The translations under genes were made by a program, and so were the position numbers. Source: an uncultured Solirubrobacterales bacterium (lineage in GTDB: Bacteria > Actinomycetota > Thermoleophilia > Solirubrobacterales > JACPNS01). From it: 64,000 nucleotides of DNA. Where the stretch lies: contig CAKZMQ010000022.1 of the NCBI GenBank assembly GCA_937128795.1, positions 28,511 through 92,510 on the forward strand. The letters run 5' to 3'. Below the pieces are notes generated by a model. The model saw nothing but the letters and a program-made list of their open reading frames with translations, was not told the origin of the DNA and did not search any database. The stretch's first letter is position 1; every line of letters starts with the position of its first letter. This document shows, one piece after another, positions 26,158 through 54,114 of the stretch.

Positions 26158-29100
26158 TCACCGGAATCGGCCGGCCGCAGACGCGCGCGAGCCGGCGTCC
26201 GTGCGAACCGTGGCCTTGAAGAGAACGCGTACTTTGTTGCGACGTGCCCTTCGAACCGACCTGTAGAGACGTCGGTTCATGCGGAACTTGACTTTGCGCG
26301 TCTTCGGCGTCGCTCCGATCCGTCTGAGTTTCAGAGTGGAGCGGCGTTTTCTGCCAGATACGACCATCCGCACCCAACAGCCCTGGCTGCAGCGCACTCG
26401 CGCGTATATGGTCCGCGTCACCTTCTTGCGTCGCGGGACAGAAAGCGCGAACCTCTCGGTCGGCAATTGACCGGCACCGCCGTTGGGATTGTTCGGTGGC
26501 GGCGGGACAACGGGCGGAGGCGGAACGGGATTCGCCCGTACGACCGCGATCGCACTTGAGCCGCTGCCGTAGTCGTTCGAACAGTTTACGACGATCGTGT
26601 TCGCCCCGAGTGCCAGGCCGATCATCGACGGGCTGGTTGCGGCCACGCCGTTGACCGTGCAGGCGACGGGTGCTGTGCCGGTTGAACTGAATCCGACGAT
26701 GGCCGATCCTGCTGATGTTTGCGATCCGTGGGTCGGCGCAGTGATCTGCACTGCCGGCGCGAGGCCGCGATTGACAGTGATCGCGTCGCTGTCGCTGCCG
26801 AAATCGTTTGCACAGACGACCTCGATCGAATTTGCGCCGATCGGCAATTCACCGGTTGCCGGGCTGGTCGCGGCGATGCCATTGACGGTGCAGTCAACAG
26901 TTTCGGAGCCGGTGGTCGCGAACTCGACGGTGGTTGATGGCGCAGTTGTGAATGCGCCATCTTCAGGTGACGTGATATCGACCGTTGGCGCGTCGCCGCG
27001 ATTGACAGTGATCGTGTCGCTGCCCGGTTCGAAATCGTTCGAGCAGTTGACCACGATCGTGTTTGCACCCGGTTGGAGTGCGACTGTTGCCGGGCTGGTG
27101 ACCGTGTCGCCGTCGATCTCACAGGTGATTGGCGACGCGCCGCCCGTGGTGAATTCGACATCCACGGCTGCGGCAGTCGTATTCGTTCCGTCGATCGGCG
27201 AGGTGATCGAGACGGTTGCCGCGTTTCCATTCGAAACGGTGATCGAGTCGTTGCCCGTGCCGTAGTCGTTGGTGCAGCTCACTGTAATGACGTTGGCACC
27301 CGGCTCGAGGGTGACCGTTGCCGGACTCGTGACGGGGTTTCCGTCGATCTCGCAGCTCACCGGCGTCGTGCCTGCGGCGCTGAACGAAACGCTGACTTCG
27401 GCATCGGCCGTGCTCAGGCCATCGGACGGCGACGTGATGTCAACGGTGGGAGCATCGCCGCGATTGACCGATATCGCACTACTGGAGCTGCCGTACTCAT
27501 TCGAACAACTGACGACTATCGAGTTCGCGCCTGGAGCCAGCGCCACTGGTGCCGGACTCGTGGCGGCGTCGCCGTTGACGGCGCAGGCGACCGGTGCGGT
27601 TCCGGTCGAGTTGAATTCAACGTTGACTGAACTTTGTGTAGTGAGCAGACCGTCGGCCGGCGATGTGATCGAAACCGTCGGCGTTGTACCGCGATGGACG
27701 GTGATCGAGTCGCTGTCTGACCCGAAACTGTTTGCACAAACGACCTCGATTGAATTCGCTCCGACGATCAGATCAACCGTTGCCGGGCTTGTGGCGGCGT
27801 CGCCGTTGATGGTGCAGAGGACCGGCACAGTACCGTTCGAGGTGAATTCGACCGGTGCGTTGGAACCGGCGGTTTGGAAACCGTCAGCGGGCGTCGTGAT
27901 TTCGACCGTCGCCGGATCGTCAATCGGCCCGACGTAGACCGTGAACACATGGTTTACGCCGTTCCCGGCGTCGTCGATGCAGCCGATCGTGATCGTGTTG
28001 GGCCCGGGATCCAACGCAACCTCATCGCCGTTGTCCGCGTCGCACACGGGCGTCTCGTCGGAGTCGTCCGTGACCGTGAAATTGAGTGTTGCCGTAGTTT
28101 CCACCTGCGTCGAATCGGGCACTGGGTTGTGCAGCGTGACCACGGGCGGCGTTGTATCGGCGGACGTATCGAGGAACTCGGCATCGGTTTCGGTGACTTC
28201 GCCGGTTTCGACCTTGAGCGAGCTGATGCGCCCGCTGAAGCGCGTGCCGATTTCGTCGTAGTCGCCGGACTTGACCGTTGCGCAATCGGTGAACTCCTCG
28301 TCGCGGCAGACCTCGGCGTGGTATCCAGCGGCGATCGACAGCGATTCGATCGCGTTGTCCCCCACCGGAGTTAAATGCGCGCGCGCTGCGGAGAACTCAC
28401 CGAGGCCAAAGTCTTGCGACGCACCGTCGAGCTCTTTTTCGGCGAACGCTACGGCCGCCTCCGTTCTGTTGGCCAGTGGAAGCTCAGCACCGACCTGAAT
28501 CATCTTCGCGATCGACGGCACGCCATTCGAATCGATCAGAAACAACATGTAGAAACCCGGCGAAGCGTCGAAGGCGTTCTCTGGTGCGGTGATCGCGAGA
28601 GTGCCCGGCGTCGAATTGTCGAACTCCAGTGGCACGCGCCGCTGACCCTGGTCGGTTGCGTGGGTCGGCGCCGGGAGCTTGATCAACGTGACCTGGTCGA
28701 TCGTCGTCCCAGGATCTCCGAGTGAGTAGTCGACGTCGAACTCGTCGGTGTACTCGACCGGAGAAAGTACCTCTGCGCTGCCATCGAGAACCGTCGGCTC
28801 GGTGATCGCCGGTCGCTGCGACGCGTCGCGCGGGGAGCCGTCGCTGTTGAACAGATACGGCGGCGAGAAGAACTCAAAATTGGCCTCGCTGTACGAGTTG
28901 TGATAGCAAGGGCCGCACACCCCGCCGCCACCCGAAATGACACGGCCATCCGGCAACAGCATGGCCATTGAGTGGTACTGGCGAAGCTTCGAGGCCTCGT
29001 CCAGCAGCGTCCATGTATCGGTCTCTGGGTCCCAGATCTCGGCGGCGTAGACCGCGGCTTCGGGGTTCACGAGATCGTTGGCGAGATCGCCGCCATTGGC

Positions 29101-33950: not shown

Positions 33951-34027
<77 letters not shown>

Positions 34028-34057
34028 AAAACTCCCCGGAAATCTGGGGAGTTTTTT
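34028..34057. terminator. intrinsic terminator (bidirectional) after the tRNA and after the rep-like gene
   Basis: Perfect 10-bp stem aaaactcccc/ggggagtttt, loop ggaaatct, then a T-run. On the other strand it is followed by ttttgtat. Confidence 0.7.
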
Positions 34058-34883
34058 ATTGCGTATTTTCGCGACGTCGACAATCTAACGAGCGATCTAA
34101 CAATCGGTCGTCTCCCCTGTCGGCCGGAAGCGGGTCAAAGACCCACCACGGGATTTCAGTCCCGGAGTAGATGCGGCAGTACTTACCCGCTCCCAAGAGC
34201 GGCTCCCACTCGCATTCACCCGCACCCTCCTGAGCAGGGCCACCAAAGATGGAACCCTCGGCCGGATCGAATGCTGGGGCCGCCGGAAAGTCTCTTGAAA
34301 AGCCGTAGGCGCGTTGCCCTTCCTCAAGGTCGGCCAGCCTGTGCGAGATGTACTTCGAGCAATACCGCGCATGTTCTGGCTTCGCACGTTCGATGAATTG
34401 TTGCGACCCGAAACCGCTCTCTTCAACCAGCTTGCGCCAAAGCTCCAGGTCATCACGAAACCACTTCATGAAGAAGATGCCGTGGTAATGCAACGTGCCG
34501 TTTTCTTGACGCTGAAGCACCCAGCCGTATCCGGCGAGGAGCTTGCGATAGCGCAGCTTTGAGATCAGACGGCGCAAGCATTCGTGGGCCTCCGCCGCCG
34601 TTGGCGCGCGATCCTCCGGGAAGGTCAGCGTTACGAACGCCGGAAACATTCCCTTCGGCGGCTTCTGAATCGCTACTCGAAATCGACCCGCCAACTCCCA
34701 CTGCTTGCGCATCGCGCAGCCCGGACACCTGCGCCATCGCTTGCACGCGACCTCGATCCGTTCGCCGTGATTGGCGCACTCCAACATCAGCGGCGAACTA
34801 CAGACCCATTTCGATGAACTTTTCGCACTTGTTCGTAATAGCTCGCCCTTCGGGCTCGCTTTCAAGGAAACAGTCCTAAACAT
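34056..34883 (-). CDS. rolling-circle (HUH-type) replication initiator-like protein
   Basis: N-terminal zinc-ribbon-like CANHGERIEVACKRWRRCPGCAMRK, an HUH-like motif GTLHYHGIFF and a Tyr motif RYCSKYISH. The assignment rests on motifs only. Confidence 0.5.
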   Translation of the reverse strand: MFRTVSLKASPKGELLRTSAKSSSKWVCSSPLMLECANHGERIEVACKRWRRCPGCAMRKQWELAGRFRVAIQKPPKGMFPAFVTLTFPEDRAPTAAEAHECLRRLISKLRYRKLLAGYGWVLQRQENGTLHYHGIFFMKWFRDDLELWRKLVEESGFGSQQFIERAKPEHARYCSKYISHRLADLEEGQRAYGFSRDFPAAPAFDPAEGSIFGGPAQEGAGECEWEPLLGAGKYCRIYSGTEIPWWVFDPLPADRGDDRLLDRSLDCRRRENTQ

Positions 34884-35250
34884 CGCTTTCGCTTGACCCT
34901 CCGATGTCCGTAGCCGGTGTGGTCCCGGCCGCTGGGACGGGCTGAGGCCCTTCCCAACGCCCTACAACCGAAACGGCCAGACCGAGCTGAAAATGGACGT
35001 AGAGGAGCGTCGAGACTTCCGACACCTTCTGAGAGTCATTGGCGAGCTTCTTGATCTCATCCGACAGGTGCCCTCTGAGTCCGTTCGCGATTCGATCCCA
35101 GTGCCCCCGAGTTTCAGGCCCGAATTCCGGAAACACGCGGATTAGCGAATCCAGATCTTGAAAACGTGCGCGAACCCCGTCGCGTTGCAAATCCCCTAGC
35201 GCCTTGTGTGCGGCCCAGAGATGTACCTGGGCTTGGTCAAGTCCGTCCAT
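34876..35250 (-). CDS. hypothetical protein (124 aa) of the integrative element
   Basis: The ORF overlaps the rep-like start by 8 nt (coupled). No motif is recognised. Confidence 0.45.
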   Translation of the reverse strand: MDGLDQAQVHLWAAHKALGDLQRDGVRARFQDLDSLIRVFPEFGPETRGHWDRIANGLRGHLSDEIKKLANDSQKVSEVSTLLYVHFQLGLAVSVVGRWEGPQPVPAAGTTPATDIGGSSESDV

Positions 35251-35321
35251 GACTAGGACTGTGCCTGAGGTTCGCGAGCCGTGCAGGGTTTTCCACTAAG
35301 TGCCGGAAGATCCGCTTTGCC

Positions 35322-36053
35322 GTGGATCTCACAGAGAGTTACAAGAAAGTGTTTCCGGAAGATGTCCTTGAGCGCTACACGTTCGAGGAGACGCGCTCGG
35401 CTGCTGCCGTTCTCGCGCATACGAACGCGGAGGAGTTCGATCACCTCGTGACGGCATTGAGAGAGTTCGAGCTGATTCCCCGCGATGTCATCGAACCCGG
35501 CAAGAACGAATCGAAGATCGCCGCTCGACTCAATGAATCGTTCCGAAGCCGAGGTTGGCGAGAAGGCCAGTACAACCTCAAGATTTCCTCCCTGCTTCGC
35601 CTAATGCCATACAAACCTGCGGGCGAAAAGAAGGCCATCGAGATTGAATCTGAAGTTGAATCAGCGGGCTACAAGGTGGACAACATCCGCTCCACAGTTG
35701 CGCTTGACGTTGAGTGGAACGCGAAGGACGGGAACCTAGATCGGGACGTAGCTGCGTATCGCTCCCTGTACGACGCGGGATTCATTTCGGTAGGTGTGAT
35801 CGTGACCCGCACGACAGACGATCTCCGAGCGTTAGGCGCGCTCTACGACCGTCCCAAGTTTCTCGGGACCACGACCACTACAAACCTTCCGAAGCTCAAG
35901 CAACGAATGACCCGGGGCGATGGCGGCGGTTGTCCGATGCTGGCAATCGCGATCTCAGCGAAGTGCTTCGACCCAGACGGCGACGGCCACGACGAGCCGG
36001 AAGCGCTCGCCGCCGACAGGGATCAGGTTCAGGCGCTAACCGACGGCGACTAG
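35322..36053 (+). CDS. putative type II restriction endonuclease (BamHI/BglII-like PD-(D/E)XK fold)
   Basis: The core YKVDNIRSTVALDVEWNAKDGNLDRDVAAYRSLYDAGFISVGVIVTR resembles the (V/I)E(V/I)(E/Q)(F/W)GN...RD...(I/V)GV(I/V)I core of BamHI/BglII-type enzymes. It is convergent with, and overlaps, an MT-A70 methyltransferase. GTG start. Confidence 0.45.
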   Translation: MDLTESYKKVFPEDVLERYTFEETRSAAAVLAHTNAEEFDHLVTALREFELIPRDVIEPGKNESKIAARLNESFRSRGWREGQYNLKISSLLRLMPYKPAGEKKAIEIESEVESAGYKVDNIRSTVALDVEWNAKDGNLDRDVAAYRSLYDAGFISVGVIVTRTTDDLRALGALYDRPKFLGTTTTTNLPKLKQRMTRGDGGGCPMLAIAISAKCFDPDGDGHDEPEALAADRDQVQALTDGD

Positions 36054-36689
36054 CGGAGGCCGACCGTCAGGCACACCGTACGCAGCGTTCGAGAAGCGCT
36101 CCGGTTCATATGCGCCCAGCTCGTTGCCCCATTGAGTCCAGCCCGGACGCTCGTTGCGAGCGAAAAGTTCTAGCCACGGACCCGGCGAGCACGACTCCAC
36201 TACGTCGTACATCTGATCGGGCTTACGCGAGTGCTCGCGCTTGCGCTCCGAGACGAGATTGACTTGCGTCCGACCGGGGTCGAGTGTGCGGTTCTGCTTT
36301 CCGCGAATGCCAAACAACACCATCTCGGTCACATTGCGGAAGTAGAAGCCGACGCCGCGACCGTCTGGGCCGCCGTCCTTCCTCGTCTTGTACCAAACCA
36401 AGTTTGTCTTGTACTCAAAGCCCCAGGCTTCCATTACGGCAAGTCCGTCGGCGAGCAGCGCGTTAGGCACCCAGAGGTATAGGTGGGACTTGTCAGCGAC
36501 GACGCTTGACACCGGCAAATCGCAAATCTCCGCCGTCGTCATCGTCTCGTATCGGGCGAGCCTTTGATGCTCAGGGGCCATTTTCCCGGTGCGATTCTGG
36601 AAACGCCACGGGGGATCTGCGAGCACCGTCCGAAACGGGTCGTGCTTCTTCGTAAGTGCCTTCATTGACTGATGCGTCAAGTTCTCCAT
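36036..36689 (-). CDS. MT-A70-family DNA (N6-adenine/N4-cytosine) methyltransferase
   Basis: Catalytic DPPW motif (VLADPPWRFQNR), then LYLWVPNALL and a C-terminal HSRKPD. The start is set at the ATG at 36689 (MENLTHQ). Confidence 0.8.
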   Translation of the reverse strand: MENLTHQSMKALTKKHDPFRTVLADPPWRFQNRTGKMAPEHQRLARYETMTTAEICDLPVSSVVADKSHLYLWVPNALLADGLAVMEAWGFEYKTNLVWYKTRKDGGPDGRGVGFYFRNVTEMVLFGIRGKQNRTLDPGRTQVNLVSERKREHSRKPDQMYDVVESCSPGPWLELFARNERPGWTQWGNELGAYEPERFSNAAYGVPDGRPPLVAVG

Positions 36690-36807
36690 GATTACCCCTC
36701 TGTTCAACGGCCGCGTCCGCTTGCCTCTAGCCGAGATGGCAAACGTAGTGGTTCCAGCGGCCGGATCCGTATGTACGAACATACGTTCGTGTCACCGCCG
36801 GACGGAA

Positions 36808-38016
36808 TTAAACCCGCACCATCGAGCCGAGTTCCACTCCAAACACATGGGTGTAGATGTCGGTGGTCACCGCAAACGTCGAATGCCCCATCGTCGCCTG
36901 AATGGCCTTAAGAGACGTTTCGCCGCGATTCTTGAGCATCAGCACCGAGCAGAATGAGTGGCGCAGGTCATGGATTCTCAGCCGGTCAGGTAGGTCGGCC
37001 TTCTCCACGGCAGCACGAAAGATGCGGCTTCGGTAGTTGTCTGGGCAAACGAGCTTTCCGCTTTCAGAAGTGAAGATGAAATCCTTGCTCCCAGTCTTCT
37101 CGGCCGAGGTTTTTAGCTCGGCCAGCAGGTCGATCAATTCCCGTCGGACAGGGACGCGCCGAAAGGACATTTCTGATTTCGGATCGCCGGGTTCGCCACC
37201 GCGAGAAGAGGATCGCGAAACGTGAATCTCGGCGCGGTCAAAGTCGATGTCCCTCCATTGAAGTGCTCGCGCTTCCCCAAGCCTCAGTCCCGAAAAGCAC
37301 AGCACAGCAGTCAGCCCCTTCCAGCGCGGATCCACGACATCTACGAGCAGCTCAAGCTCTCGCTGATCAATGAACAGCGGCCGACGCATCTTGAGCTTTG
37401 GCAGCTCGGCACCCTTCACCGGATTGATCGCTATGACCTCGTCGGCAATCGCGAGATCGAGGATCGCGTGTAGAACTGCGATGTGATTGCGGATTGTCTT
37501 GGCCGACAGCGCGCGCGGTTTGCGGAGCGCTCCAAGGCCATCAACTGCCGGATCGAACTCGCGCTTGACCGACCGCACCGGCATCGACGCGATTCCCTTT
37601 TTCTTCGCCGCAATGTACTTACGGACGTCCTCCGGCTCTACATCAATGACCCGACAGGAACCGTCGTCGAACGATGGGAGCAGGTGGCCGTAGATGATCG
37701 TCAGGTAGTCCTGCGTCGTCGTTTTCCTAATGGCTCCCGTGTCTTCATTCTGCCTGAGAAATCGATCGGCGTAGTAACGCATCGATCGCTCGCTCGCGAT
37801 CTCAGGCTGTCCCTCGGTCTTGGCGTCCTGGACTTCTGTGAGAAGCTGGTTCAGGAGTTCCTGAGCGTGCCGCGCAGTCGGACCTGCGGCCTTCCAGCGT
37901 TGAACATTCGCGGCGTCCCAATACACCGCGTAGTAGGTGGCTGAACCGTCCGCCTTGGTTCGCATCTGAATCGAGCCAGAGCCGCGCGGGCGGCGAGTGC
38001 GTGATTTCTTAGACAT
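36808..38016 (-). CDS. int: tyrosine-type site-specific integrase
   Basis: Catalytic region GLRLGEARALQWRDID...HDLRHSF...GHSTFAVTTDIYTHV (the R..HxxR..Y pattern). The start at the ATG at 38016 (MSKKSRTRRPRGSGSI) overlaps the xis stop by 8 nt. Confidence 0.9.
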   Translation of the reverse strand: MSKKSRTRRPRGSGSIQMRTKADGSATYYAVYWDAANVQRWKAAGPTARHAQELLNQLLTEVQDAKTEGQPEIASERSMRYYADRFLRQNEDTGAIRKTTTQDYLTIIYGHLLPSFDDGSCRVIDVEPEDVRKYIAAKKKGIASMPVRSVKREFDPAVDGLGALRKPRALSAKTIRNHIAVLHAILDLAIADEVIAINPVKGAELPKLKMRRPLFIDQRELELLVDVVDPRWKGLTAVLCFSGLRLGEARALQWRDIDFDRAEIHVSRSSSRGGEPGDPKSEMSFRRVPVRRELIDLLAELKTSAEKTGSKDFIFTSESGKLVCPDNYRSRIFRAAVEKADLPDRLRIHDLRHSFCSVLMLKNRGETSLKAIQATMGHSTFAVTTDIYTHVFGVELGSMVRV

Positions 38017-38239
38017 CGTCTCTCCAATCCATTTTCTTATTTGGGCGAGCGTTACCGCTGCGCCGTGAGGTGTGTTTTGTGCCGCCGGTTGCCATCCACG
38101 ACTCAATATCTGAGCGGTTGAATCGGGTCAGGCTGCCAACGAGGAAGTGCGGGATACCGTCCTCAGCATGCGGGGACGTCAGGCGATCAATCGTTGAGCG
38201 TGAGACACGCAAAAGGTCAGCTACTTCACTGACGGTCAT
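38009..38239 (-). CDS. xis: excisionase-family helix-turn-helix protein
   Basis: MTVSEVADLLRVSRSTIDRL...RFNRSDIESW is a MerR-like excisionase HTH. It lies directly upstream of int. A start at 38263 is an alternative. Confidence 0.7.
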   Translation of the reverse strand: MTVSEVADLLRVSRSTIDRLTSPHAEDGIPHFLVGSLTRFNRSDIESWMATGGTKHTSRRSGNARPNKKMDWRDDV

Positions 38240-38472
38240 GACGGTTTGAATTGCCTGTTCCACTTAAGGAACATAGGTCGTCTGGAGCGAGGAACCGGAC
38301 GAGAATGCAAATTTTCCGCAAGTCTCGTCTTCCGCGAATCTAGGGCAGTTTTTCCACGGCAAAACAGGCCCGCGAGATCTAACGAAATCTCACTATGCCT
38401 GACGAATCGTGACTGTTTGTGCGTCAAATACCCCATACGTATGCGGTATCGCGACACTACGCCTAGAGCTGA

Positions 38473-38523
38473 GTCGGGCTCATAACCCGAAGGTCGCAGG
38501 TTCGAATCCTGCCCCCGCTATAC
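38473..38523. repeat. att core copy 2 (attR of element 1 and attL of the older remnant)
   Basis: Identical 51-nt copy of the tRNA 3' part, lacking the tRNA 5' half. Confidence 0.85.
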
Positions 38524-38526
38524 GTG

Positions 38527-38558
38527 GAAACGCCCTCGCGAGAGGGCGTTTCTTGTTT
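38527..38558. terminator. intrinsic terminator following att copy 2
   Basis: 11-bp stem gaaacgccctc/gagggcgtttc, loop gcga, then ttgtttcc. It may also terminate the convergent ADH gene. Confidence 0.6.
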
Positions 38559-38646
38559 CCACGTGTTGTCGTGATTTACACGCATCAGCCATTGTTGCCG
38601 TCAAACCGATGCCATTCGGGCGCAACGGAGCTACGTGCTCACGCCG

Positions 38647-39657
38647 TCATCGCTCCAGCACGACCCGGTAGCGCGGAGTGCCCGAACGGAGGCGCTCGAT
38701 GGCTTCGTTGATCTGATCGAAGCCGAACGTTTCGCAGACAGGCGCGATGTCGTGGCGCGCCGCGAAGTCGAGCATCGTGAGTGCCGTGGTCGGGCTTCCC
38801 GAGGGCGAGCTCGAGACCGACCGATTCGCCATCATCAGCTGTGTGTTGACGATCTCTAGGGGTGCGGGCACCGCTCCGAGTACGTGCATGCGGCCCTGGC
38901 GGCTCACCGTACCGAGATAGGCGTTCCAGTCGAGCGGGGCGTTCACCGTCGACAGCAAGAGGTCGAATGACTCGCTGAGCGCGGCGAGCGCCTCGCTGTC
39001 ACGTGAATCGCGCACATGGTGGGCACCCATGCCCCGGGCGTCGTCGCCCTTCGACTCTGTTGAGGTGAAGACCGTGACCTCGCAACCCCACGCGCGCGCG
39101 AGCTTGACCGCCATGTGTCCCAGTCCTCCCAGGCCGATAACTCCGACGCGGTCAGTCGGCGAGACGCCGTACTGCAAGAACGGGGTGAACACCGTGACTC
39201 CGCCGCACATCAGCGGGCCCGCGGTCCGCAGGTCTACGCCGTCGGGGATCGGGAGCACTGCGGCCGCGTCGGCGCGCACGACGTCCGCGTACCCACCGGG
39301 GCGGCCGATGAACGTGCTCTTCGCATCGGGGCAGAGGTTCTGGTTGCCGCCGACGCACTGGCGGCACGCCCCGCAGTAGGCGGCGTTCCAGCCCAGCCCG
39401 ACCGCGTCGCCCACCGCGACGCTCGTCACGCCCGGTCCAACGGCGCGGATGCGGCCGATGATCTCGTGTCCGGGGGTAATCGGGTACGGCGTGAACCCCC
39501 AGTCGTTATCGATCATGCTGACGTCGCTGTAACAAATTCCGCACGACTCGACGTCGATGTCGACCTCGCCGTGGTCCAGCTGAGGCAGTTCGAACTGGTA
39601 GGGCTGGAGCTGTCCGCCGGGGGCATCTGCTCGGTAGGCGTTGACGGTCACGGGCAT
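38647..39657 (-). CDS. zinc-dependent NAD(P) alcohol dehydrogenase (cinnamyl-alcohol/YahK-like)
   Basis: Catalytic zinc motif CGICYSD...GHEIIGRI, structural zinc CGACRQCVGGNQNLC, Rossmann VIGLGGLGHMAV. Confidence 0.85.
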   Translation of the reverse strand: MPVTVNAYRADAPGGQLQPYQFELPQLDHGEVDIDVESCGICYSDVSMIDNDWGFTPYPITPGHEIIGRIRAVGPGVTSVAVGDAVGLGWNAAYCGACRQCVGGNQNLCPDAKSTFIGRPGGYADVVRADAAAVLPIPDGVDLRTAGPLMCGGVTVFTPFLQYGVSPTDRVGVIGLGGLGHMAVKLARAWGCEVTVFTSTESKGDDARGMGAHHVRDSRDSEALAALSESFDLLLSTVNAPLDWNAYLGTVSRQGRMHVLGAVPAPLEIVNTQLMMANRSVSSSPSGSPTTALTMLDFAARHDIAPVCETFGFDQINEAIERLRSGTPRYRVVLER

Positions 39658-39840
39658 GGCTGTTCCTCCTGAGTGGTTCCTGAGGTCAAGAGCCTGTCAA
39701 GTGGTTCGAGCGGCGTCGTGCACGATCGTCCGAAGTGGTTGCCTGATCCTCCACGATTGCCGTAGTGGCGCCCCAAGAAGGCCTCATTAGGTAGGGGTCA
39801 CGGCGACTCGTGCTGCCTGATCCTGCATACTTACGGTCTC

Positions 39841-40773
39841 ATGTCGGTCCAGTCCATATCCGCACACCCCACCCGCGAGTCGGCGTTGCTGGACCTCGCG
39901 GACCTTGTCGGCGAAAGGCTGGGCGGCGAGGTCGGAGAGCCCCTCCTGAGGCGGCCCTATGACGGACTCCTGCTCCTTTCGCATCGCCAGAGATCCGCTC
40001 GCGTCCCGCAGGTCTACGACCCCGTCGTGTGTTTGGTGGTGCAAGGCGCGAAAGAAGTCGTCGCCGCAGATCGGGTGCACCCGATCACCGCCGGGCAGTT
40101 CCTCGTGGTCACCCACGAAATGCCGGTCGCCTCGCGGATAACCGCAGCCTCCCACGGGGAGCCGTACCTCGCGGTGGTGCTGTCGATCGACACCCAGACC
40201 TTGGTGGAGTTGCAGATGCGGATCGGCGCCACCGGAGCGATGGCGCCGGCGGGCGGTGACGGCTACGCGATGAGCGTCGGTGATGCCGACATCGATCTGG
40301 TCGACGCCTTCACTCGCTGCCTGCGAGCGACCGGCGAGCGCGACGACACCGATGTGTTGCTCCCGCTGGTCTTCCGCGAGATTCACTACCGGCTTCTGAC
40401 GTCGCCCCATGCTGACACGCTCCGGCGTCTCAGCCTTGGAGATACGGCTGCGCAGAGCGTGTCAAAGGCGATTGCACTGATCCGGCGTGATCTCACGGCG
40501 CAGATTCGCATCGGCCTGCTCGCAAAACACGTCGGTCTCAGCACTTCCGCGCTGCACCATCACTTCAAGACCGTGACCGGAACCACGCCGATCCAGTGCC
40601 AGAAGCAGCTCCGACTCCTCGAAGCGCGACGTCGCCTGCAATCGACCGGCCAGTCGGTCTCCGAGGCCTCCTACGCCGTCGGCTACGCGAGCCCCTCGCA
40701 GTTCAGCCGCGAGTACCGTCGTGCATTCGGCTGGCCGCCCTCCCAGGACGTGGGCACCCTCCTCGATAGCTAG
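39841..40773 (+). CDS. AraC-family transcriptional regulator (N-terminal AraC_N/cupin-like domain)
   Basis: C-terminal double HTH: LAKHVGLSTSALHHHFKTVTGTTPIQCQKQLRLLEARRRL...VSEASYAVGYASPSQFSREYRRAFG. Confidence 0.85.
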   Translation: MSVQSISAHPTRESALLDLADLVGERLGGEVGEPLLRRPYDGLLLLSHRQRSARVPQVYDPVVCLVVQGAKEVVAADRVHPITAGQFLVVTHEMPVASRITAASHGEPYLAVVLSIDTQTLVELQMRIGATGAMAPAGGDGYAMSVGDADIDLVDAFTRCLRATGERDDTDVLLPLVFREIHYRLLTSPHADTLRRLSLGDTAAQSVSKAIALIRRDLTAQIRIGLLAKHVGLSTSALHHHFKTVTGTTPIQCQKQLRLLEARRRLQSTGQSVSEASYAVGYASPSQFSREYRRAFGWPPSQDVGTLLDS

Positions 40774-40832
40774 AGCATTCACAGGTGTCGGGGCGTGCGG
40801 CGATCTCATCGCAGACCACTCAGGCCGCCATG

Positions 40833-40870
40833 AACCCGAAGGTCGCAGGTTCGAATCCTGCCCCCGCTAT
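40833..40870. repeat. att core copy 3 (displaced ancestral tRNA 3' end)
   Basis: aacccgaaggtcgcaggttcgaatcctgcccccgctat is identical to tRNA positions 37-74. It is followed by its own hairpin. Confidence 0.8.
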
Positions 40871-40878
40871 TTCGAGAG

Positions 40879-40908
40879 GCCCGGCGATCGCTGGGCTTGT
40901 TCATTCTC
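40879..40908 (+). terminator. probable ancestral tRNA terminator
   Basis: Stem gcccggc/gctgggc (one G-U pair), loop gatc, then the T-rich ttgttcattctc. Confidence 0.4.
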
Positions 40909-40975
40909 AAAGAGCGAATTCCAAACACTCGACGGATCAAGCGCTGCGCCGCCCTGCAGTGCAATCGTCAGCGCG

Positions 40976-41539
40976 CTAGCTGAACGACAGCGAGTTCAAC
41001 ACCTGTTCGCAGCCCGCGTCCAGTGCGGCACGGTTTGCGGGAGACGACTGGCAGTTGACCAGAAACTCGTTCTTGCCTTGGAACAAGAACGTCAATGTCG
41101 TCAGAAGCTCGACGCCGTTTCCGCCCGGGTACTCAACGACGTATTGGTAACCCGGAATTCCGCCAAAGCTCACTTCTATTGAATCGCTTGAGCTGCCATT
41201 TGACTGGCGCGTGAGACGACGGACAATCCTGTCGATCTCTTCCTGATTGGCGTTGAACCCGTCGGGCAGCTCTTTGTCGAGTTCGTACTGCGCAACTGTG
41301 ATCTCATCGTCGGGCTCCTTCAACGTCACGCCCACCGACCGCACCGCGTCGTCCGAGCCGAATACAAAGGCAGGATTCCTCGTCACCTTCCAGCCGTCGG
41401 GATAGTCGAAACTGAACGGATACGTTGGTGTGTCGAACTTGGCCGTAGAGGTTTTATCCCCTCCGCAACCAGAGACCGTCAGGACCACTAGAAGCAGAAC
41501 TGAAACGACGGCGGAGATGTAGAAACGATTTCGGATCAC
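40976..41539 (-). CDS. lipoprotein of unknown function
   Basis: Signal peptide with lipobox LTVSGC. The mature part is about 160 aa and beta-rich. Confidence 0.65.
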   Translation of the reverse strand: MIRNRFYISAVVSVLLLVVLTVSGCGGDKTSTAKFDTPTYPFSFDYPDGWKVTRNPAFVFGSDDAVRSVGVTLKEPDDEITVAQYELDKELPDGFNANQEEIDRIVRRLTRQSNGSSSDSIEVSFGGIPGYQYVVEYPGGNGVELLTTLTFLFQGKNEFLVNCQSSPANRAALDAGCEQVLNSLSFS

Positions 41540-41824
41540 GGGTATCGGGCGGTCTTGATTTATTCAATATCGATTGGCCGACGAACAGACGGCGGCTGAT
41601 TCGGGCCCTGAAGCAATTGAATGCACTGCCGGAGCCCTTACCTATTTCGGTAGATCAAAAACGTTTCCTGCGTGACTGGCACGGCTCCCACCGGCAAGGA
41701 TTGCGCTCGGCGACCTAAAACGACTAGAGCGGCGAAAAACCTTCTTAATGGTAACCCTAATGAGGTATACAAAGATGCCCATTAGTGTGGATTGTCCAGA
41801 ATACGGCTTTCTTCTAGGTTTAAC

Positions 41825-41853
41825 TTGACACCTGAGGGCAGATGCCGATTATA
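41825..41853 (+). promoter_or_regulatory. sigma-70/SigA-type promoter upstream of the collagen-like gene
   Basis: TTGACA (41825-41830), a 17-nt spacer, then ATTATA (41848-41853), in an AT-richer tract 60 nt upstream of the GTG start. Confidence 0.5.
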
Positions 41854-41912
41854 AGTGTGCGCCTGCACGTTCGCGGTCAGGTTGCTCGATCCGTTTTACG
41901 GAGCCTTAGTTC

Positions 41913-43682
41913 GTGCTGATTTCTCGACGAAACGACAACCACGCCGGATGGAACGTCACGGCAATCATGGGAGTAGCGATAACGCTGCTCTCGGCGATCG
42001 CGCTGCTATTTGCGAACGCGCAACCTGCGAAAGCGTGGTACGTGGGTGTCCCGAGCAAGTCTTGTGCCTACTACAGCATGATGATTGGTCGACAGACTCT
42101 CTATCTAAATCGAAATCAGTACCGGCTCAACCGCACGCGCTCTGCCTCGAAACGACGCGCGCTGCAACGCAAACAGAAGCGAATGGAAGATCGTCGGCAC
42201 GAGTTTTTGAAGTCGTACAACTCGAAATGCGCGCCGTCGACCGCTGATGCGCTGCTTACGCAGCTTCGCACGAACCCGTCATCGGCAGCTACCTGGAATG
42301 AGATTTTTGTCGAAGTAGGCGCGCAAGGCGCGATGGGTCCCGCTGGTGCGGCCGGTGCTGACGGCGCAACGGGCGCGACAGGCGCGACTGGTGCAACCGG
42401 CGCTGCTGGAGCTGATGGTGCCGACGGCGCGACAGGTGCAACCGGCGCTGCTGGCGCAGATGGTGCCGACGGTGCGACGGGAGCAACTGGTGCGACGGGC
42501 GCGACCGGGGCAACCGGCGCCGTAGGCGCGCAGGGCGCGATGGGCCCGACTGGTGCGACTGGTGCCGATGGCGCGACTGGGGCAACCGGCGCTGCAGGCG
42601 CAGATGGTTCTGACGGAGCGACGGGTGCAACCGGTGCGACAGGTGCCAATGGAACTGACGGCGCCGATGGGGCGACCGGGGCAACGGGTGCGACCGGCGC
42701 CGTAGGCGCGCAAGGTGCGATGGGTCCGACCGGAGCTGCTGGAGCTGATGGTGCTGACGGAGCGACGGGGGCAACCGGCGCTGCTGGCGCAGATGGTGCC
42801 GATGGTGCGACTGGGGCAACGGGTGCGACCGGCGCCGTAGGCGCGCAGGGTGCGATGGGTCCGACCGGTGCGGCCGGTGCGGCCGGTGCCGACGGTGCGA
42901 CTGGTGCAACGGGCGCCGCGGGCGCAGATGGTGCCGACGGCGCAACTGGGGCGACGGGTGCAACGGGCGCCAATGGAACTGATGGAGCTGATGGCGCGAC
43001 TGGGGCGACTGGGGCAACGGGTGCGACTGGCGCCGTAGGCGCGCAGGGCGCGATGGGCCCGACTGGCGCAGCTGGAGCGGTAGGTGCGACTGGAGCTGTC
43101 GGCGCCGCGGGCGCGATGGGCGCTACAGGCGCGACTGGTGCGACGGGTGCGACGGGTGCTACCGGTGCGACTGGAGCTGTCGGCGCGCAAGGCTCGATGG
43201 GCTCGACCGGTGCGACTGGAGCAACGGGTGCCACCGGACCTCAAGGCCCCGCAGGCTCGCAGGGGCCGGCTGGTGCGACCGGCCCGACAGGTCCGCTCAG
43301 CACGCTTGGCTACTTCGGCAGCGAGACAGAACGGTCTACCTCCAGCGGGTCCCTGACCAACTTGACCGGGGTCTCATTTACGTACACGGTGCCAGTCGGC
43401 GCGAACCGCATCATCGTCAACTGGACGTTCGAATGCCGGACGTACCAACTGTTCGGAAACCCACAAGCGAAAGCACGTATCACCGTCGACGGAAGTGCCG
43501 CCAGCGGCGACTCCGGCGACTACGTGGCTTGCCAAAACTCAGATCCCGGAACCGGAGCACTGACCCGGGCATTCGATGTGACCAGTGGGAGCACTGTGAC
43601 GATTCGCGGTCAGGGAAGCACCTCGGGCGGCACCGCCTACTACGACGACAACTTCATGACGGTCGTGCCGGGTACGCAGTAG
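41913..43682 (+). CDS. secreted collagen-like triple-helix repeat protein with beta-rich C-terminal domain (BclA-like architecture)
   Basis: GTG start with GGAG 9 nt upstream and a signal-like N-terminus (...[11 protein letters not shown]). There are ~325 uninterrupted Gly-X-Y triplets ([18 protein letters not shown]), followed by a 130-aa non-repetitive C-terminal domain. Confidence 0.8.
42316..43296. repeat. Gly-X-Y triplet array with higher-order repeats
   Basis: The landmark g(t/c)(a/c)ggcgcgca(a/g)gg(c/t)(g/t)cgatggg (GA(V)GAQGAMGP) recurs at 42315, 42522, 42702, 42837, 43035 and 43179. The spacings are 207, 180, 135, 198 and 144 bp. Confidence 0.85.
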
Positions 43683-43924
43683 GCGACGAGCTGGATCTCC
43701 GAGGCCCGCTAGTGCAGGCTCGGTCATGATCGCGAGAGCGGTCGCTACGCCGTCGCGAAACGCCCGCACCGGAGATAGCCGCGAACGTGTGACTTTGCGC
43801 TCGCATGCAGGCATTGTTCGCCCTGCAACCGAGACTTGATTGGGCTAGTCGTCTAAAAATCCGACCCCTGCGACTGGACCGATGGCGCCGCGTTTCGGCG
43901 TGGTCGACTTCGACTCACGCCGAT

Positions 43925-50053: not shown

Positions 50054-50230
50054 AGCCTTTTCCAAAAAGCTCGATTTGGCGTACTGCTTTTTGACTCTCG
50101 GTTCGCGGACTTTCGTTGGAAGCCTCAAAATCGCGGTTTAGCGCTGCCGCTCGGATGACGATCCACTAGTTGCCGGTTGGGGTGCCGCGCGCTGCCGGAA
50201 TCTCAACATGGAAATCGGAATCACACCCAG

Positions 50231-52549
50231 ATGAACGACGGCGCATTGGTGCCTGGCGGCTACCTGCTTCATTCGCCCGACGCTCGGTCGCTCGCGGCGA
50301 GACTTGCGACAGCTCACACACTTGTGATCGGTGCCGTAATCGCGCTGGTCGCGATCGACACCAACCAGTGGGATTTGGTGACGACCGTCTACTTGGTCGG
50401 GTTGTGCCTTTGGGCACCGGTGATTCCGATGATTCCGTGGCGACGGTTCTCGCACAACTACATCGCGAAGCTGTACTTCCTCGGCGCCGGATCGTTCGTG
50501 TTCTTCGCGTTTCACTTCGACAATCCGTATCTCTTGCTCGGCATCTACCCCGAGATGTTCGCGTTCGCCGACATCTATTGGTACCGCCGATCGATGGCTG
50601 CGCTCCACATCGGCACGCTGCTCGTCGCCTTTCTCGCCGGAGTGCTGATTATCGGCGGGCCGGCAGCCGCCGCCCTGATTCTGGTGGCCGCACCGTTGAT
50701 GGCCGCCAGTGCGCTGCTCGTGGGCGCGATGAGTCATCGATTCATTCAGTCCGCACTCGAGCACTCGCAGTTCAAGTCGGCAGTGAGTTCCCTGCTCGAA
50801 GCGCTTCAAGCACGTGACGGATACACCGGTGAGCACTCCAAGGAAACCCTTGCGATGGCTACGGCCGTCGCCCATGAGCTCGGCCTGGACGGGGCGGCAC
50901 GCAAAGAACTCGCGGACGTCGCGTTGTTGCACGACATCGGCAAGATCGGAATCCCGAATTCAATCCTGCAAAAGCCGGGCGCATTGACAGCCGAGGAGTG
51001 GGAGATCATGCGCCAGCACCCGGTGATCGGCGAACAAATTCTTGTTGGCGTACCGGGATTCGAGGCCGTTGCAAAAGCAGTGCGTCACGAACACGAGCGC
51101 TGGGACGGCGGCGGCTATCCCGACGGAATTTCCGGACAGGAAATCCCTCTCAGCAGTCGCATCGTCTTCACGTGCGACGCATTCCACGCGATGACCAGTG
51201 ACCGCCCATACCGGGACGCAATGCCGATCGCTGACGCCCGAGCCGAACTCAACAAGCATTCCGCGAGCCAGTTCGATCCCGACGTGGTCGCGGCGTTCGA
51301 TCGAATCATCGAGAACGGTGCCCTCGACCACGCTCTCGAATCAGTCGAACAGCGTGCGCTGGAGCCGATCCCCGTTGCCGAGATCCGCGAAGTCCCTGCC
51401 CTGACGAGCTTGCCGAGCGAGATACCGAGCTCCGTCATCGAGCCGGCCTCCGAGTCCTTCTCGATCGACGATCCGCGGGCGATGATCGCGATCTCCTATG
51501 GCAATGCCGCGCTCGTTGCTGCAGTGATGGCGACATATTTGGCAGTGGAGCGATCGTTCGATTTGCTTGGCACCGCGTTTGTCGTTTCGGCGATAGCCGT
51601 CGCAGCCATCGGCTTCTTACTTCGCAAGCGGACGCCGAGATCGTGGTGCCTCTACACATCGCTGGCACCGTATGTCGTGGTGCCAATCGTCGCGCTGCAT
51701 TACGAACAGCCCGCAATGCTGACGATGATGCTCGGCAGCGCCGTCCTCCTCTCCGCGTTCTATTGGGACCGCAGCGTGCTGAAAGCGGCACACGCTTTGC
51801 TCCTGATCTTCGTGTTCGTTGCGCTGCCGGTGATTCTCTTCGGCGGCATGGCGTTCGCTTTCGCTGCGGTCAGCGCCCGCGCCTTCCCGGGGGCGCTACT
51901 GATCGTTGGCTATTTCTCGACACGATTGACGGAGATGCGCTTCGTACGTGACCGCTTCACCGGAACCATGAATTCCTTGCTGCGCGCGTTGCAGGCTCGC
52001 GATGGCTACACGGCTGACCACTCGCGCGAAACGGTGTCGATGGCGCTCCTTGTTGCCGAGGAGCTCGAGCTCGAGGAGATCGCACGTGCGGAGCTGAAGG
52101 ACGTAGCCCTGCTTCACGACATCGGCAAACTCGGGGTACCCGATGAAATTCTCAACAAACCGGGTGACCTCGATCACGGTGAGTGGGAAATCATGCGACA
52201 GCATCCGGTCTTTGGTCAGCAGATCGTCTCCCGCGTGCCTGGATTCGAATCCGTCGCCACCGCGATTCGCCACGAGCACGAGCGCTGGGACGGTGGTGGT
52301 TATCCCGACGGTCTGCGCGGCGAAGCCATCCCGCTCTCCAGTCGAATCGTCTTCGCCTGCGATGCCTTTCACGCGATGACCAGCGACCGGCCCTATCGCA
52401 AGTCACTCGGGGAGGCAGCTGCTCGCGAAGAGATCGTCAAGCACGCTGGATCGCAGTTCGACCCTGCCGTCGTGATCGCGCTGCTGCACGTTTTGGATCG
52501 CCGTTGCGAAATAGCGAGCGCACCTGAAGAAGCGCAGCTCGCTGCATGA
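50231..52549 (+). CDS. membrane protein with two tandem [multi-TM + HD-GYP] modules (c-di-GMP phosphodiesterase-like)
   Basis: Two copies of ...ALQARDGYT..HS.ET...LLHDIGK.G.P..IL.KPG.L...EWEIMRQHPV.G.QI...VPGFE.VA.A.RHEHERWDGGGYPDG...IPLSSRIVF.CDAFHAMTSDRPYR. Each follows ~170-190 aa of TM helices. The start is set at the ATG at 50231. Confidence 0.8.
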   Translation: MNDGALVPGGYLLHSPDARSLAARLATAHTLVIGAVIALVAIDTNQWDLVTTVYLVGLCLWAPVIPMIPWRRFSHNYIAKLYFLGAGSFVFFAFHFDNPYLLLGIYPEMFAFADIYWYRRSMAALHIGTLLVAFLAGVLIIGGPAAAALILVAAPLMAASALLVGAMSHRFIQSALEHSQFKSAVSSLLEALQARDGYTGEHSKETLAMATAVAHELGLDGAARKELADVALLHDIGKIGIPNSILQKPGALTAEEWEIMRQHPVIGEQILVGVPGFEAVAKAVRHEHERWDGGGYPDGISGQEIPLSSRIVFTCDAFHAMTSDRPYRDAMPIADARAELNKHSASQFDPDVVAAFDRIIENGALDHALESVEQRALEPIPVAEIREVPALTSLPSEIPSSVIEPASESFSIDDPRAMIAISYGNAALVAAVMATYLAVERSFDLLGTAFVVSAIAVAAIGFLLRKRTPRSWCLYTSLAPYVVVPIVALHYEQPAMLTMMLGSAVLLSAFYWDRSVLKAAHALLLIFVFVALPVILFGGMAFAFAAVSARAFPGALLIVGYFSTRLTEMRFVRDRFTGTMNSLLRALQARDGYTADHSRETVSMALLVAEELELEEIARAELKDVALLHDIGKLGVPDEILNKPGDLDHGEWEIMRQHPVFGQQIVSRVPGFESVATAIRHEHERWDGGGYPDGLRGEAIPLSSRIVFACDAFHAMTSDRPYRKSLGEAAAREEIVKHAGSQFDPAVVIALLHVLDRRCEIASAPEEAQLAA

Positions 52550-54114
52550 GTGGTCGATCGATGAACACACATGCGCACGATGTCGCGGCGCCCGAGCTCC
52601 TGGACGTGAATCCCATGGACCGCCGACGGTCGCACGCTGAACTGCGACTCGCGGCGGGTTCGTCCGGCAATCAACTGCCTTCATCGGCTCGCGATCGATT
52701 ACTCAAATATGCAGTGTTCGCATCCGCCGCCCTGCTGCTCGCATTTGCTTGTCAACTGATGCTCAATCCCTTTGGCGGCGCACTCGACAGCCTCTTCGAC
52801 GAGGTGGTCGCAACTGTCGTCATCGCAATTGCGTCGTTCGCGACCGCTATTCGAGCCGTCACCTCGACGAGCCACCGAGTGGCGTGGTGGACGGTGACCG
52901 CCGCGCTCGCAAGCTGGGCCATTGCGGACCTCTACTGGAACTCTTACATCGCGCAGATGGACAGTCCGCCCTACCCGTCGGTCGCCGACTACCTGTACCT
53001 GGTCTTCTATCCGCTGATGTTCGTCGGCCTGGCGATGCTTGCTCGCGCCTCGATCCCCAAGCCGCGGGCAAGCGTCTGGTTGCATGGTTTGATCGCGGTA
53101 CTGGCCGCCGCAGCGATCGACGCAGCACTCGTATTCGACACGATTCAACCGACTGCGACCGGTTCTCCCGCTGAGATCGCCACAAACCTCGCATATCCGA
53201 TCGGCGACTTGTTGCTGTTGGGCTTCGTTCTCGGTGTTTGGGCACTCTCCGGTTGGCGACCGACGGCAATGTGGCGTTGGATCGGCGTGGGACTGCTGTT
53301 GATCACCCTGGGCGACTCGGTGTTTCTTTACGAGTCGGCGACCAGCGGTTTTGAGGTCGGTACCTGGGTCGACTTGACTTGGCCGGCCAGCGCGTTGTGT
53401 CTGACGGTTGCCGCATGGCGCAGTTCGGATCGTTCTGTCGATTTCAAGCGATCCGGCGATCATTGGCTTTTCGTACCGACCGCCGTGTTCTCACTGATCG
53501 CGATCGGAATTCTTCTGTGGGACCATTTTTATCCAGTCGGCATCTTGGCGTTGGCGCTGGCAACTGCTGCGGCAGTTGCCACGATTATTCAGATGGCATT
53601 GGCGTTCGCCGAAAACTCTCGATTGCTTGAACAGAGCAATCGTCAGGCGCTGACCGACCAAGTGACCGGCATTCCCAACCGCAGACGCTTGATGGTCGAC
53701 TTGAAAGCAGCCTGCGACGACGTGTCGGTGAGGCAACCTGCGGTGCTGTTGATGTTCGACCTCGACGGCTTCAAGAGTGTGAACGACCGACTAGGTCACG
53801 TCGAAGGTGATCATATTCTGCGCCACTTCGCGCAACGACTGACCGAGCTCGCAAATCCGCATGGGATGGCGTACCGACTTGGTGGCGACGAGTTCTGCAT
53901 CCTGCTTCGCGCCCACCCTGACGACGTGACCGAACTGTCGCACATTGCCAGCGAGTCGCTCGAGGTGCAAGGCGACGGATACTCGGTGACGAGCTCGTTC
54001 GGAGCGGTCGCGATGCCGCAAGACACATCTGAACCCGAACAAGCGCTGCGCATCGTCGATCGGCGCATGTACGAAAACAAGGCCGGTGGCCGCGCGCAAC
54101 GCAATTCGGTTTAG
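52546..54114 (+). CDS. membrane-bound diguanylate cyclase (multi-TM sensor + GGDEF)
   Basis: About 9 TM segments, then ALTDQVTGIPNRR...FDLDGFKSVNDRLGHVEGD...YRLGGDEFCILL. The ATGA overlap with the upstream HD-GYP gene indicates an operon. Confidence 0.85.
   Translation: MSGRSMNTHAHDVAAPELLDVNPMDRRRSHAELRLAAGSSGNQLPSSARDRLLKYAVFASAALLLAFACQLMLNPFGGALDSLFDEVVATVVIAIASFATAIRAVTSTSHRVAWWTVTAALASWAIADLYWNSYIAQMDSPPYPSVADYLYLVFYPLMFVGLAMLARASIPKPRASVWLHGLIAVLAAAAIDAALVFDTIQPTATGSPAEIATNLAYPIGDLLLLGFVLGVWALSGWRPTAMWRWIGVGLLLITLGDSVFLYESATSGFEVGTWVDLTWPASALCLTVAAWRSSDRSVDFKRSGDHWLFVPTAVFSLIAIGILLWDHFYPVGILALALATAAAVATIIQMALAFAENSRLLEQSNRQALTDQVTGIPNRRRLMVDLKAACDDVSVRQPAVLLMFDLDGFKSVNDRLGHVEGDHILRHFAQRLTELANPHGMAYRLGGDEFCILLRAHPDDVTELSHIASESLEVQGDGYSVTSSFGAVAMPQDTSEPEQALRIVDRRMYENKAGGRAQRNSV

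Follow-up and report, generated by a model that had tools for sequence, protein, structure and literature searches.

Collagen-stalked fibres with C1q/TNF-like knobs are already known and have been well studied on the spores of Bacillota and in viruses. The spore proteins BclA, F-BclA and L-BclA attach through an N-terminal module and bear a jelly-roll knob of the TNF/C1q superfamily at the C-terminal end of a Thr-rich Gly-X-Y stalk, the length of which varies. Knobs of the Bacillus BclA type trimerise and are displayed distally, and the features that define BclA are an exosporium leader docking on ExsF and the BclA_C domain (PMC12357932). The collagen-like adhesins Scl1/Scl2 of streptococci and Lcl of Legionella, which are secreted or lie on the surface, likewise have a domain outside the collagen that serves for trimerisation or adhesion, and C1q-knobbed collagen-like fibres also occur in phages and giant viruses. 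Here we describe a gene that shares this general design, found at positions 41913..43682 of a 64,000-nucleotide (nt) stretch of contig CAKZMQ010000022.1 (the whole stretch is hereafter called the window), whose nearest relatives are Solirubrobacterales of the class Thermoleophilia.

We think it probable that the product is an exported homotrimeric fibre with a collagen stalk, which would leave the cell by Sec, carry a TNF-like knob and have a basic N-domain as its proximal end. An earlier reading of this DNA from its letters alone (the sequence-only reading) had supposed that few such fibres were known in high-GC actinobacteria; in the literature searched we found no account of a collagen-like fibre from Solirubrobacterales or from any other actinomycetes.

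Architecture of the fibre gene

The gene is a single intact open reading frame (ORF) with a GTG start, encoding 589 amino acids (aa) plus stop; this coding sequence and all features below lie on the plus strand (+) unless marked minus (-). N-domain, collagen-like array and C-domain share one frame, and no other ORF connects all three. A Shine-Dalgarno-like GGAG (41900..41903), read from the sequence, precedes the start codon by 9 nt. Antisense and alternate-frame ORFs over the array (for example 42116..43234, minus, an 'APV' repeat) were rejected as by-products of the GC-rich repeat, because the plus frame alone connects the conserved N- and C-domains. The structural account of the sequence-only reading is largely right: its order of parts, a signal peptide, a basic N-region, a collagen stalk and a beta-rich cap, was borne out by the sequence itself, by the Pfam model PF01391 and by AlphaFold2 (AF2).

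Residues 1-41 (41913..42035) form a putative Sec-type signal peptide, with an RR-containing n-region, a 20-residue hydrophobic core and the motif AKA↓W. Both homologues on a metagenome contig, L002, have the equivalent junctions ANA↓W and ASA↓W, immediately before the same conserved Trp that opens the N-domain. The N-domain itself (aa 42-135; 42036..42317) is basic (pI 10.4, 18 K+R) and helical, with conserved Cys at aa 51 and 106. An AF2 model from a three-sequence input predicts a helical hairpin (H10-33 + H37-64) that has the two conserved Cys at its open end, with a predicted local distance difference test score (pLDDT) of 81-93 over domain residues 10-60. The domain had no match in Pfam, NCBIfam or PHROG, and a fold search of its model against the PDB returned generic helical hairpins only, all with E > 1. 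Homologues of it were seen only in contigs L002, L008 and, weakly, L006; no further ones appeared in a k-mer homologue search or in a single-sequence scan of JGI metagenome contigs.

The stalk (aa 136-462; 42318..43298) is a collagen-like array of 109 uninterrupted Gly-X-Y triplets. It belongs to Pfam Collagen (PF01391; E 2e-49, 165.6 bits against a gathering cut-off of 27.2). The figure of about 325 triplets given earlier corresponds to the residue count, which is 327; the accompanying claim of an uninterrupted run dominated by GAT, GAD and GAA is correct, with 45, 16 and 11 copies respectively, followed by GAV (7), GAQ (6) and GAM (6). At a rise of 0.286 nm per residue of collagen helix, the 327 residues of the array would form an acidic, Pro-poor and Thr-rich rod about 94 nm in length. 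Ala fills the X position in 91/109 triplets (83%) and Pro in 10/109 (9%), and 19 D/E residues are set against no K/R at all. Thr takes 51/109 Y positions (47%), which is typical, since Thr accounts for 48% of Y positions in the bacterial collagens of Gram-positives (PMC8968730). The Ala-rich X position, the low Pro content and the complete lack of K/R are unusual and make the stability of the helix a puzzle. Stabilisation by glycosylation of Thr has often been proposed for bacterial collagens, and Lys-Glu/Asp salt bridges are reported to stabilise triple helices (PMC11923368).

A landmark of 39 nt (13 aa) recurs six times within 42309..43211, with starts at 42309, 42516, 42696, 42831, 43029 and 43173. 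In the protein the copies stand at aa 133 (a degenerate copy), 202, 262, 307, 373 and 421, and the spacings of 207, 180, 135, 198 and 144 bp are exactly those reported by the sequence-only reading. Tandem Repeats Finder detected higher-order periodicity as well, with units of 135, 144 and 81 bp that are 77-86% identical. Exact DNA repeats in the array reach a length of 38 nt, against 21 +/- 3 nt when the same protein was re-encoded with local codon usage, and there are 66 pairs of exact 20-mers, all in frame, against 3.6 in the re-encoded controls. Because these DNA repeats exceed what re-drawing of codons would give, the modules were built by DNA duplication. The array consists of in-frame module duplications that are old rather than recent, and short substrates for in-frame recombination remain. 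Codon scrambling that would suppress recombination in the array was considered and rejected, since the DNA is more repetitive than the codon re-draw predicts.

The same punctuation, G-x-x-G-A/E/L-[M/I]-G-P-T-G, recurs in the stalks encoded in the window and in contigs L011, L007, L008 and L002 at irregular intervals of 45-75 residues, and the L011 copy (13 aa) is nearly identical to the landmark of the window. The landmark is thus a family-wide feature as well as an internal repeat, because it punctuates the stalks of other members as well. Stalk length differs between members, from 72 triplets in the first L002 copy (L002a) through 109 in the window to at least 160 in L008. Unequal recombination had been predicted to change fibre length; past duplication of modules and the range of stalks among family members agree with this, at the level of the family's history.

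Base composition is atypical at this locus, as had been noted, but unevenly so. The 373-nt non-coding intergenic region (41540-41912) between the fibre gene and a divergent lipoprotein gene has a GC content of 0.51, the window minimum for 370-nt stretches (0.2% quantile; window mean 0.62), and over the initial 400 nt of the gene it is 0.555 (2.7% quantile of the window). GC at third codon positions (GC3) falls from 0.75 in the C-domain to 0.64 in the N-domain and 0.56 in the array, compared with 0.70-0.78 in core neighbouring genes; the low value in the array stands despite an overall array GC of 0.74. T-ending codons are over-used in the array relative to core genes (GGT 0.38 vs 0.20, ACT 0.34 vs 0.09, GAT 0.58 vs 0.28). 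The atypical composition is therefore real but limited to the intergenic region, to the N-domain and, within the array, to the preference for codons ending in T; the C-domain has normal GC3.

The intergenic region also contains a sigma-70-like promoter candidate, TTGACA-16 nt-GATTAT (41825..41852), which lies 61 nt upstream of the start codon and agrees with the consensus at 10/12 positions. The sequence-only reading had placed TTGACA-17-ATTATA here: its TTGACA stands, whereas ATTATA matches TATAAT at 2/6 positions, and the better hexamer, GATTAT with a spacer of 16, begins one base upstream. No other site on either strand of the 64 kb reaches 10/12, where about 1.3 would be expected, and when the intergenic region is shuffled such a match arises in about 2% of trials. 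The candidate is plausible by consensus and suggestive of a promoter, and is uninformative on promoter strength; the strong expression that the sequence-only reading took from it claims more than the site can tell. In the upstream region neither Rfam nor repeat scans had any matches.

The predicted C-terminal knob and its nearest folds

The C-domain (aa 463-589; 43299..43679) is predicted to fold as a knob, an all-beta jelly roll like those of TNF and C1q, and has two Cys that are invariant in the family; the beta-rich character claimed for it earlier holds, and its length is 127 aa, not 130. An alignment of nine members (A1) contains both Cys and the motifs YTVP.GANR, ITVDG and TRAF.VT.GSTVT. 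With A1 as input, AF2 returned an all-beta model of nine strands with a mean pLDDT of 91.6 and a predicted template modelling score (pTM) of 0.85. A Foldseek search of the PDB with this model gave 38 matches at E <= 1e-3, led throughout by trimeric TNF-like jelly rolls. The model and these matches support a TNF/C1q-like jelly roll as the predicted fold, and by analogy with the best matches, all of which are trimers, we infer that the knob is trimeric; a jelly roll of this kind is what the sequence-only reading had proposed to look for with AlphaFold. At the sequence level the C-domain matched nothing in Pfam, NCBIfam, PHROG or the PDB, as a single sequence or as a profile. Neither PF00386 (C1q) nor PF00229 (TNF) matched at E <= 1, so the likeness is confined to the fold.

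The best solved-structure matches are two TNF-like lectins, BC2L-C-Nt of Burkholderia cenocepacia (2wq4, 6tid; template modelling score (TM) 0.64-0.67) and PLTL of Photorhabdus laumondii (9ib7, 9ib9). Together they match at E 4e-5 to 1e-4 and TM 0.60-0.67, and they resemble the C-domain model in their small size (about 130 aa) and all-beta jelly roll; they differ in having 13-17% sequence identity to it and no collagen stalk. The highest TM in the PDB (0.68-0.69) belongs to the C-terminal TNF-like domain of Chlamydia Pgp3 (4jdm, 6gjt), a secreted trimer. Pgp3 has 8-12% identity to the C-domain, its middle segment is a coiled coil according to the PDB entries rather than Gly-X-Y, and its biology is unrelated. 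Further matches are the Bacillus exosporium proteins ExsFA (7r5i) and BxpB (8d02), the spike knob of phi812, the needle knobs of Sf6 and HS1, and Bdellovibrio fibre tips (8okw, 8okh). Lectin activity of the knob may be suggested by analogy with these lectins.

Based on these folds, the protein might instead be a soluble secreted TNF-like lectin or effector in the manner of Pgp3, PLTL and BC2L-C, released from the cell, with the collagen serving as a mere trimerising spacer. The top fold matches are indeed secreted lectins and Pgp3, and the sequence has no recognisable anchoring motif: it contains no LPXTG, no lipobox and no C-terminal anchor, and ends in VVPGTQ. The length of the stalk (94 nm) and the N-domain, which is conserved and basic and has a pair of Cys, nevertheless suggest a proximal attachment module, and two distant members of the family, P0013 and P0014, bear the same knob on a short non-collagen stalk behind a hydrophobic N-terminus (signal or transmembrane-like). 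We regard release as a soluble lectin as unlikely, if worth keeping in mind beside an attached fibre.

The sequence-only reading matched the protein to BclA, and as a fold-level analogy this survives: the stalk and the predicted C-terminal TNF/C1q-like fold recall BclA, and ExsFA and BxpB are among the fold matches of the knob. The features that define BclA are missing. The exosporium leader model TIGR03720 had no match at E <= 1 in the whole protein or its N-terminal 135 aa, PF18573 (BclA_C) had none at E <= 1 in the protein, the C-domain or any of the nine A1 members, and no ExsF-like gene lies within the 64-kb window. In place of the leader or an ENA-docking motif the fibre has a Sec signal peptide, its triplets are GAT, GAD and GAA where those of BclA are GPT, and its N-domain is a basic helical hairpin without known family. 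The BclA C-terminal domain (1WCK) was not among the 50 best PDB fold matches of the knob. The host also differs, the nearest relatives being Thermoleophilia in place of spore-forming Bacillota; Thermoleophilia are not known to form endospores. The fibre protein is not a member of the BclA family, its likeness to BclA being a structural analogy, and the idea that it is a true BclA-type spore-surface protein of an exosporium nap is barely credible.

The fibre protein is likewise neither Scl1/2 nor Lcl. It scored 181.5 bits with NF038329 against a cut-off of 325 and 130.5 with NF038330 against 400 (both Scl1/Scl2 models, aligned mainly in the collagen region), and 110.6 bits with NF046116 (Lcl) against 500. 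Scl proteins have an LPXTG anchor and an N-terminal globular V domain, whereas the fibre here has no LPXTG and carries its knob at the C-terminus, so that the polarity is reversed.

The closest predicted folds overall are viral. Foldseek against BFVD returned 384 viral matches with TM up to 0.79, mostly to uncharacterised Caudovirales proteins, a few of them annotated as C1q-domain, collagen-like or tail proteins; they include the C1q-knobbed collagen-like fibres of uncultured Caudovirales, cedratvirus and a Synechococcus phage. Some of these fibres join collagen repeats to a knob, as here, but no sequence-level relationship was found, and the gene described here differs in its signal peptide and chromosomal context. 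PHROG tail-fibre families also match the protein. These matches are essentially confined to the collagen repeat (the best stretch of phrog_5073 extends to aa 537), and neither the N-domain nor the C-domain alone gave a significant PHROG match. The C-domain also had no tblastn match in 50,697 phage genomes or a plasmid collection, and a scan with A1 found no relatives in IMG/VR.

Relatives and the tRNA-Met integration site

An exhaustive phmmer search with the C-domain through 1.84 billion cluster representatives gave 11 matches, about nine of them apparently genuine, and a profile search added three. Two proteins, P0003 and P0011, were set aside: their match is a repeated one of about 50 residues, and they are probably not homologues. 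A k-mer homologue search found one match with the single sequence and eight with the profile, and a single-sequence scan of JGI metagenome contigs with the C-domain found nothing; the exact protein had no entry in the contig index. The family is very rare and patchy, with about a dozen relatives in 1.84 billion representative proteins.

The three-part architecture of signal peptide with N-domain, stalk and knob recurs in P0006 and in contigs L002 and L008, and the combination of collagen and C-domain in L007 and L011. In the metagenome contig L002 (JGI 3300062794) the fibre gene is present as two paralogues in tandem (L002:344-1732 and L002:1829-2317), whose signal peptides and N-domains are nearly identical, and P0004 is a 1018-aa protein with two knobs. 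The knob of L007 is intact at 81% identity, and the C-domain, with a dN/dS (omega) of 0.09 against L007, is under purifying selection. In L006, by contrast with these copies, the first ~47 aa of the knob are deleted internally and a frameshift precedes the last 8 codons.

Members of the family sit in chromosomal contexts among housekeeping genes, with no accompanying phage genes. In L004 the surroundings are OTCase, a tRNA methyltransferase and PDH genes, and in L009 valS, tsaD and a Mur ligase. In three contigs from different samples a family member adjoins leuB (Iso_dh): L006:925-1278, L010:531-2826 and L011:477-2394, the last two with a conserved 143-aa hypothetical protein between leuB and the fibre gene. 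Because the window has no leuB, the fibre gene stands at different loci in different lineages.

In the window the gene lies beside an integration hotspot, as the sequence-only reading had it. The tRNA-Met gene occupies 33951-34024, and its 3' 51 nt (33977-34027) are repeated exactly at 38473-38523; a third copy of 38 nt, also exact, lies at 40833..40870, 1 kb upstream of the fibre gene. These repeats delimit two tandem integrated elements, of which the third copy marks the distal edge. The first element (34025-38523) encodes a rolling-circle Rep, a BglII-like endonuclease, an MT-A70 methylase and a tyrosine integrase. The second (38524-40870) encodes a Zn-dependent alcohol dehydrogenase (Zn-ADH) and an AraC regulator only, with no integrase. 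Both are missing from L003, one of two closely related contigs.

Those two contigs, L001 (GCA_049607785.1) and L003 (ME_XS_2208_bin_78), come from Solirubrobacterales metagenome-assembled genomes (MAGs). On either side they align with the window at about 85% identity, and both lack window positions 34032-43563. The sole part of the fibre gene that they keep is its last 39 codons with the 3' flank (43564..43765), position 43564 being the deletion breakpoint. In L003 a 114-aa fusion ORF (L003:8896-9240) joins residues 1-75 of a DUF1428 protein in frame to these 39 codons; the L001 contig starts inside the same fusion ORF, with the same junction (L001:1-191), and the window has no DUF1428 gene. 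Across the junction the two contigs agree at 296/300 positions. The retained tail and 3' flank have 83% DNA identity to the window over 205 nt, compared with 84-86% in the flanks, and the 117-nt coding tail alone has 88% (103/117) with 97% protein identity and an omega of 0.017. Because the tail is kept at the same locus with a divergence like that of the flanks, the fibre gene was present in the common ancestor, and an imprecise deletion later removed it in the L001/L003 lineage.

The sequence-only reading took the AT-richer patch to point to horizontal acquisition. As a recent event in the lineage of the window this is argued against by the retained 117 nt, whose surroundings and own sequence stand at 83-88% identity beside flanks at 84-86%; an older acquisition would fit the same comparison. 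The same evidence bears on whether the gene derives from a phage, as a tail-fibre or receptor-binding gene (or what remains of one) that a mobile element deposited at the tRNA-Met hotspot. Its position just beyond the tandem elements, the AT-richer intergenic region, the unusual codon usage of the array, the PHROG tail-fibre matches and the phage and giant-virus proteins that head the structural matches in BFVD would all suit such an origin. The gene, however, stands outside the last attachment (att) repeat with no phage structural genes nearby, its 3' end is kept in relatives at ordinary genomic divergence, other members stand beside leuB, valS and tsaD, a putative Sec signal peptide would be unusual in a virion protein, and the domains at either end find no phage counterparts in the searches above. 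A phage origin seems to us quite improbable, and a chromosomal gene for an exported fibre remains the reading that we prefer.

Loss from L001 and L003, the rarity and patchiness of the family and the internal deletion and frameshift in L006 could also mean that the ORF is decaying and non-functional in a plastic region that flanks an island. The sequence-only reading had itself named silence and degeneration in relatives as grounds for giving up its interpretation; the losses and the state of L006 go part of the way, and in other relatives the gene is intact and under purifying selection, with the omega of 0.09 given above. The 1.77-kb ORF is open through an array of 981 nt, the C-domain model is confident, and a ribosome-binding site (RBS) and a promoter-like site are present. 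Decay is in our view very improbable. Since the fibre gene has been deleted in the closest known relatives it is dispensable, and the overall picture is of a gene that appears functional yet dispensable, often lost, in a plastic region beside the tRNA-Met site.

The immediate neighbours of the fibre gene are a lipoprotein, a DUF389 and an M23 peptidase gene. The divergent lipoprotein gene (40976..41539, minus; lipobox LTVSGC) shares the 373-nt intergenic region and is given as context only; it has no family, has weak matches to the type VII secretion system (T7SS)-associated Rv3446c domain and to PsbP models, and is missing from L003. On the other side, the relatives have an extra 2.4 kb (L003:9326-11752; an Asn synthase and a CN hydrolase, both minus) that has no counterpart in the window, inserted at window position 43765/43766, exactly between the 3' flank of the fibre gene and the DUF389 gene. 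Further away, 26158-30912 (minus) encodes a 1584-aa protein with Kelch/galactose-oxidase-like, glucodextranase-B and cadherin-like domains, the 5' region of which is internally repetitive (multiple off-diagonal blastn matches to L003). At 50177-54114 a double HD-GYP-type (HD_5) gene adjoins a GGDEF diguanylate cyclase gene, which suggests a signalling pair for cyclic di-GMP (c-di-GMP).

Proposed working of the fibre

To bring these observations together we propose the following sequence of events. The precursor would be exported by Sec and cleaved after Ala41, as the sequence and the conserved AxA↓W junction of the homologues suggest. Three C-terminal jelly-roll domains would then come together as a knob, the fold being that of the model and the trimer that of its matches. 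By comparison with established collagen and BclA folding, the knob would fix the register of the chains and nucleate the stalk, whose 109 triplets would zip up from C to N. The helical N-domain, basic and stapled by its Cys, would be the proximal end of the rod, held most likely on the anionic Gram-positive envelope or by a partner protein, which is the weakest step of the scheme. The distal knob would act as the binding head, probably as an adhesin or in a lectin-like manner, by analogy with TNF-like lectins and fibre tips. The array itself was assembled through in-frame duplication of modules.

Several points weigh against this proposal. Trimerisation, export, surface attachment and ligand binding are all predictions, drawn from sequence, models and analogy. 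The N-domain model is moderate (overall pLDDT 69, from three sequences) and matches nothing, and since the protein has no anchor motif it could simply be released. An array free of Lys and Arg can form no Lys-Glu/Asp salt bridges; the stability of the stalk may rest on glycosylation of Thr, yet no glycosyltransferase is encoded nearby. The promoter is a candidate by its match to the consensus. The gene is deleted, its last 39 codons excepted, in the two nearest MAGs, and the copy in L006 looks degenerate, either as a pseudogene or through an assembly error.

A bolder extension is that these proteins form a new class of fibre specific to non-sporulating soil Actinomycetota (Thermoleophilia), with the N-terminal hairpin as a new envelope-docking module, the stalk punctuation as periodic hydrophobic docking or kink sites and the knob as a rapidly turning-over recognition head. 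Rapid turnover of the knob would explain the tandem paralogues, the changes of locus and the repeated losses. We put this forward as a doubtful conjecture.

Neither the architecture nor the fold would surprise a specialist, and the advance is to that extent incremental. What is new is that the same design is built here from end domains that are catalogued in none of the databases searched. An exported fibre of this kind would bring with it an N-terminal attachment module of a new type and a Gly-Ala-Thr triple helix that is poor in Pro and free of basic residues, which is relevant to collagen stability. The locus offers a candidate surface adhesin or lectin that is tractable, from a soil lineage that is abundant but poorly studied.

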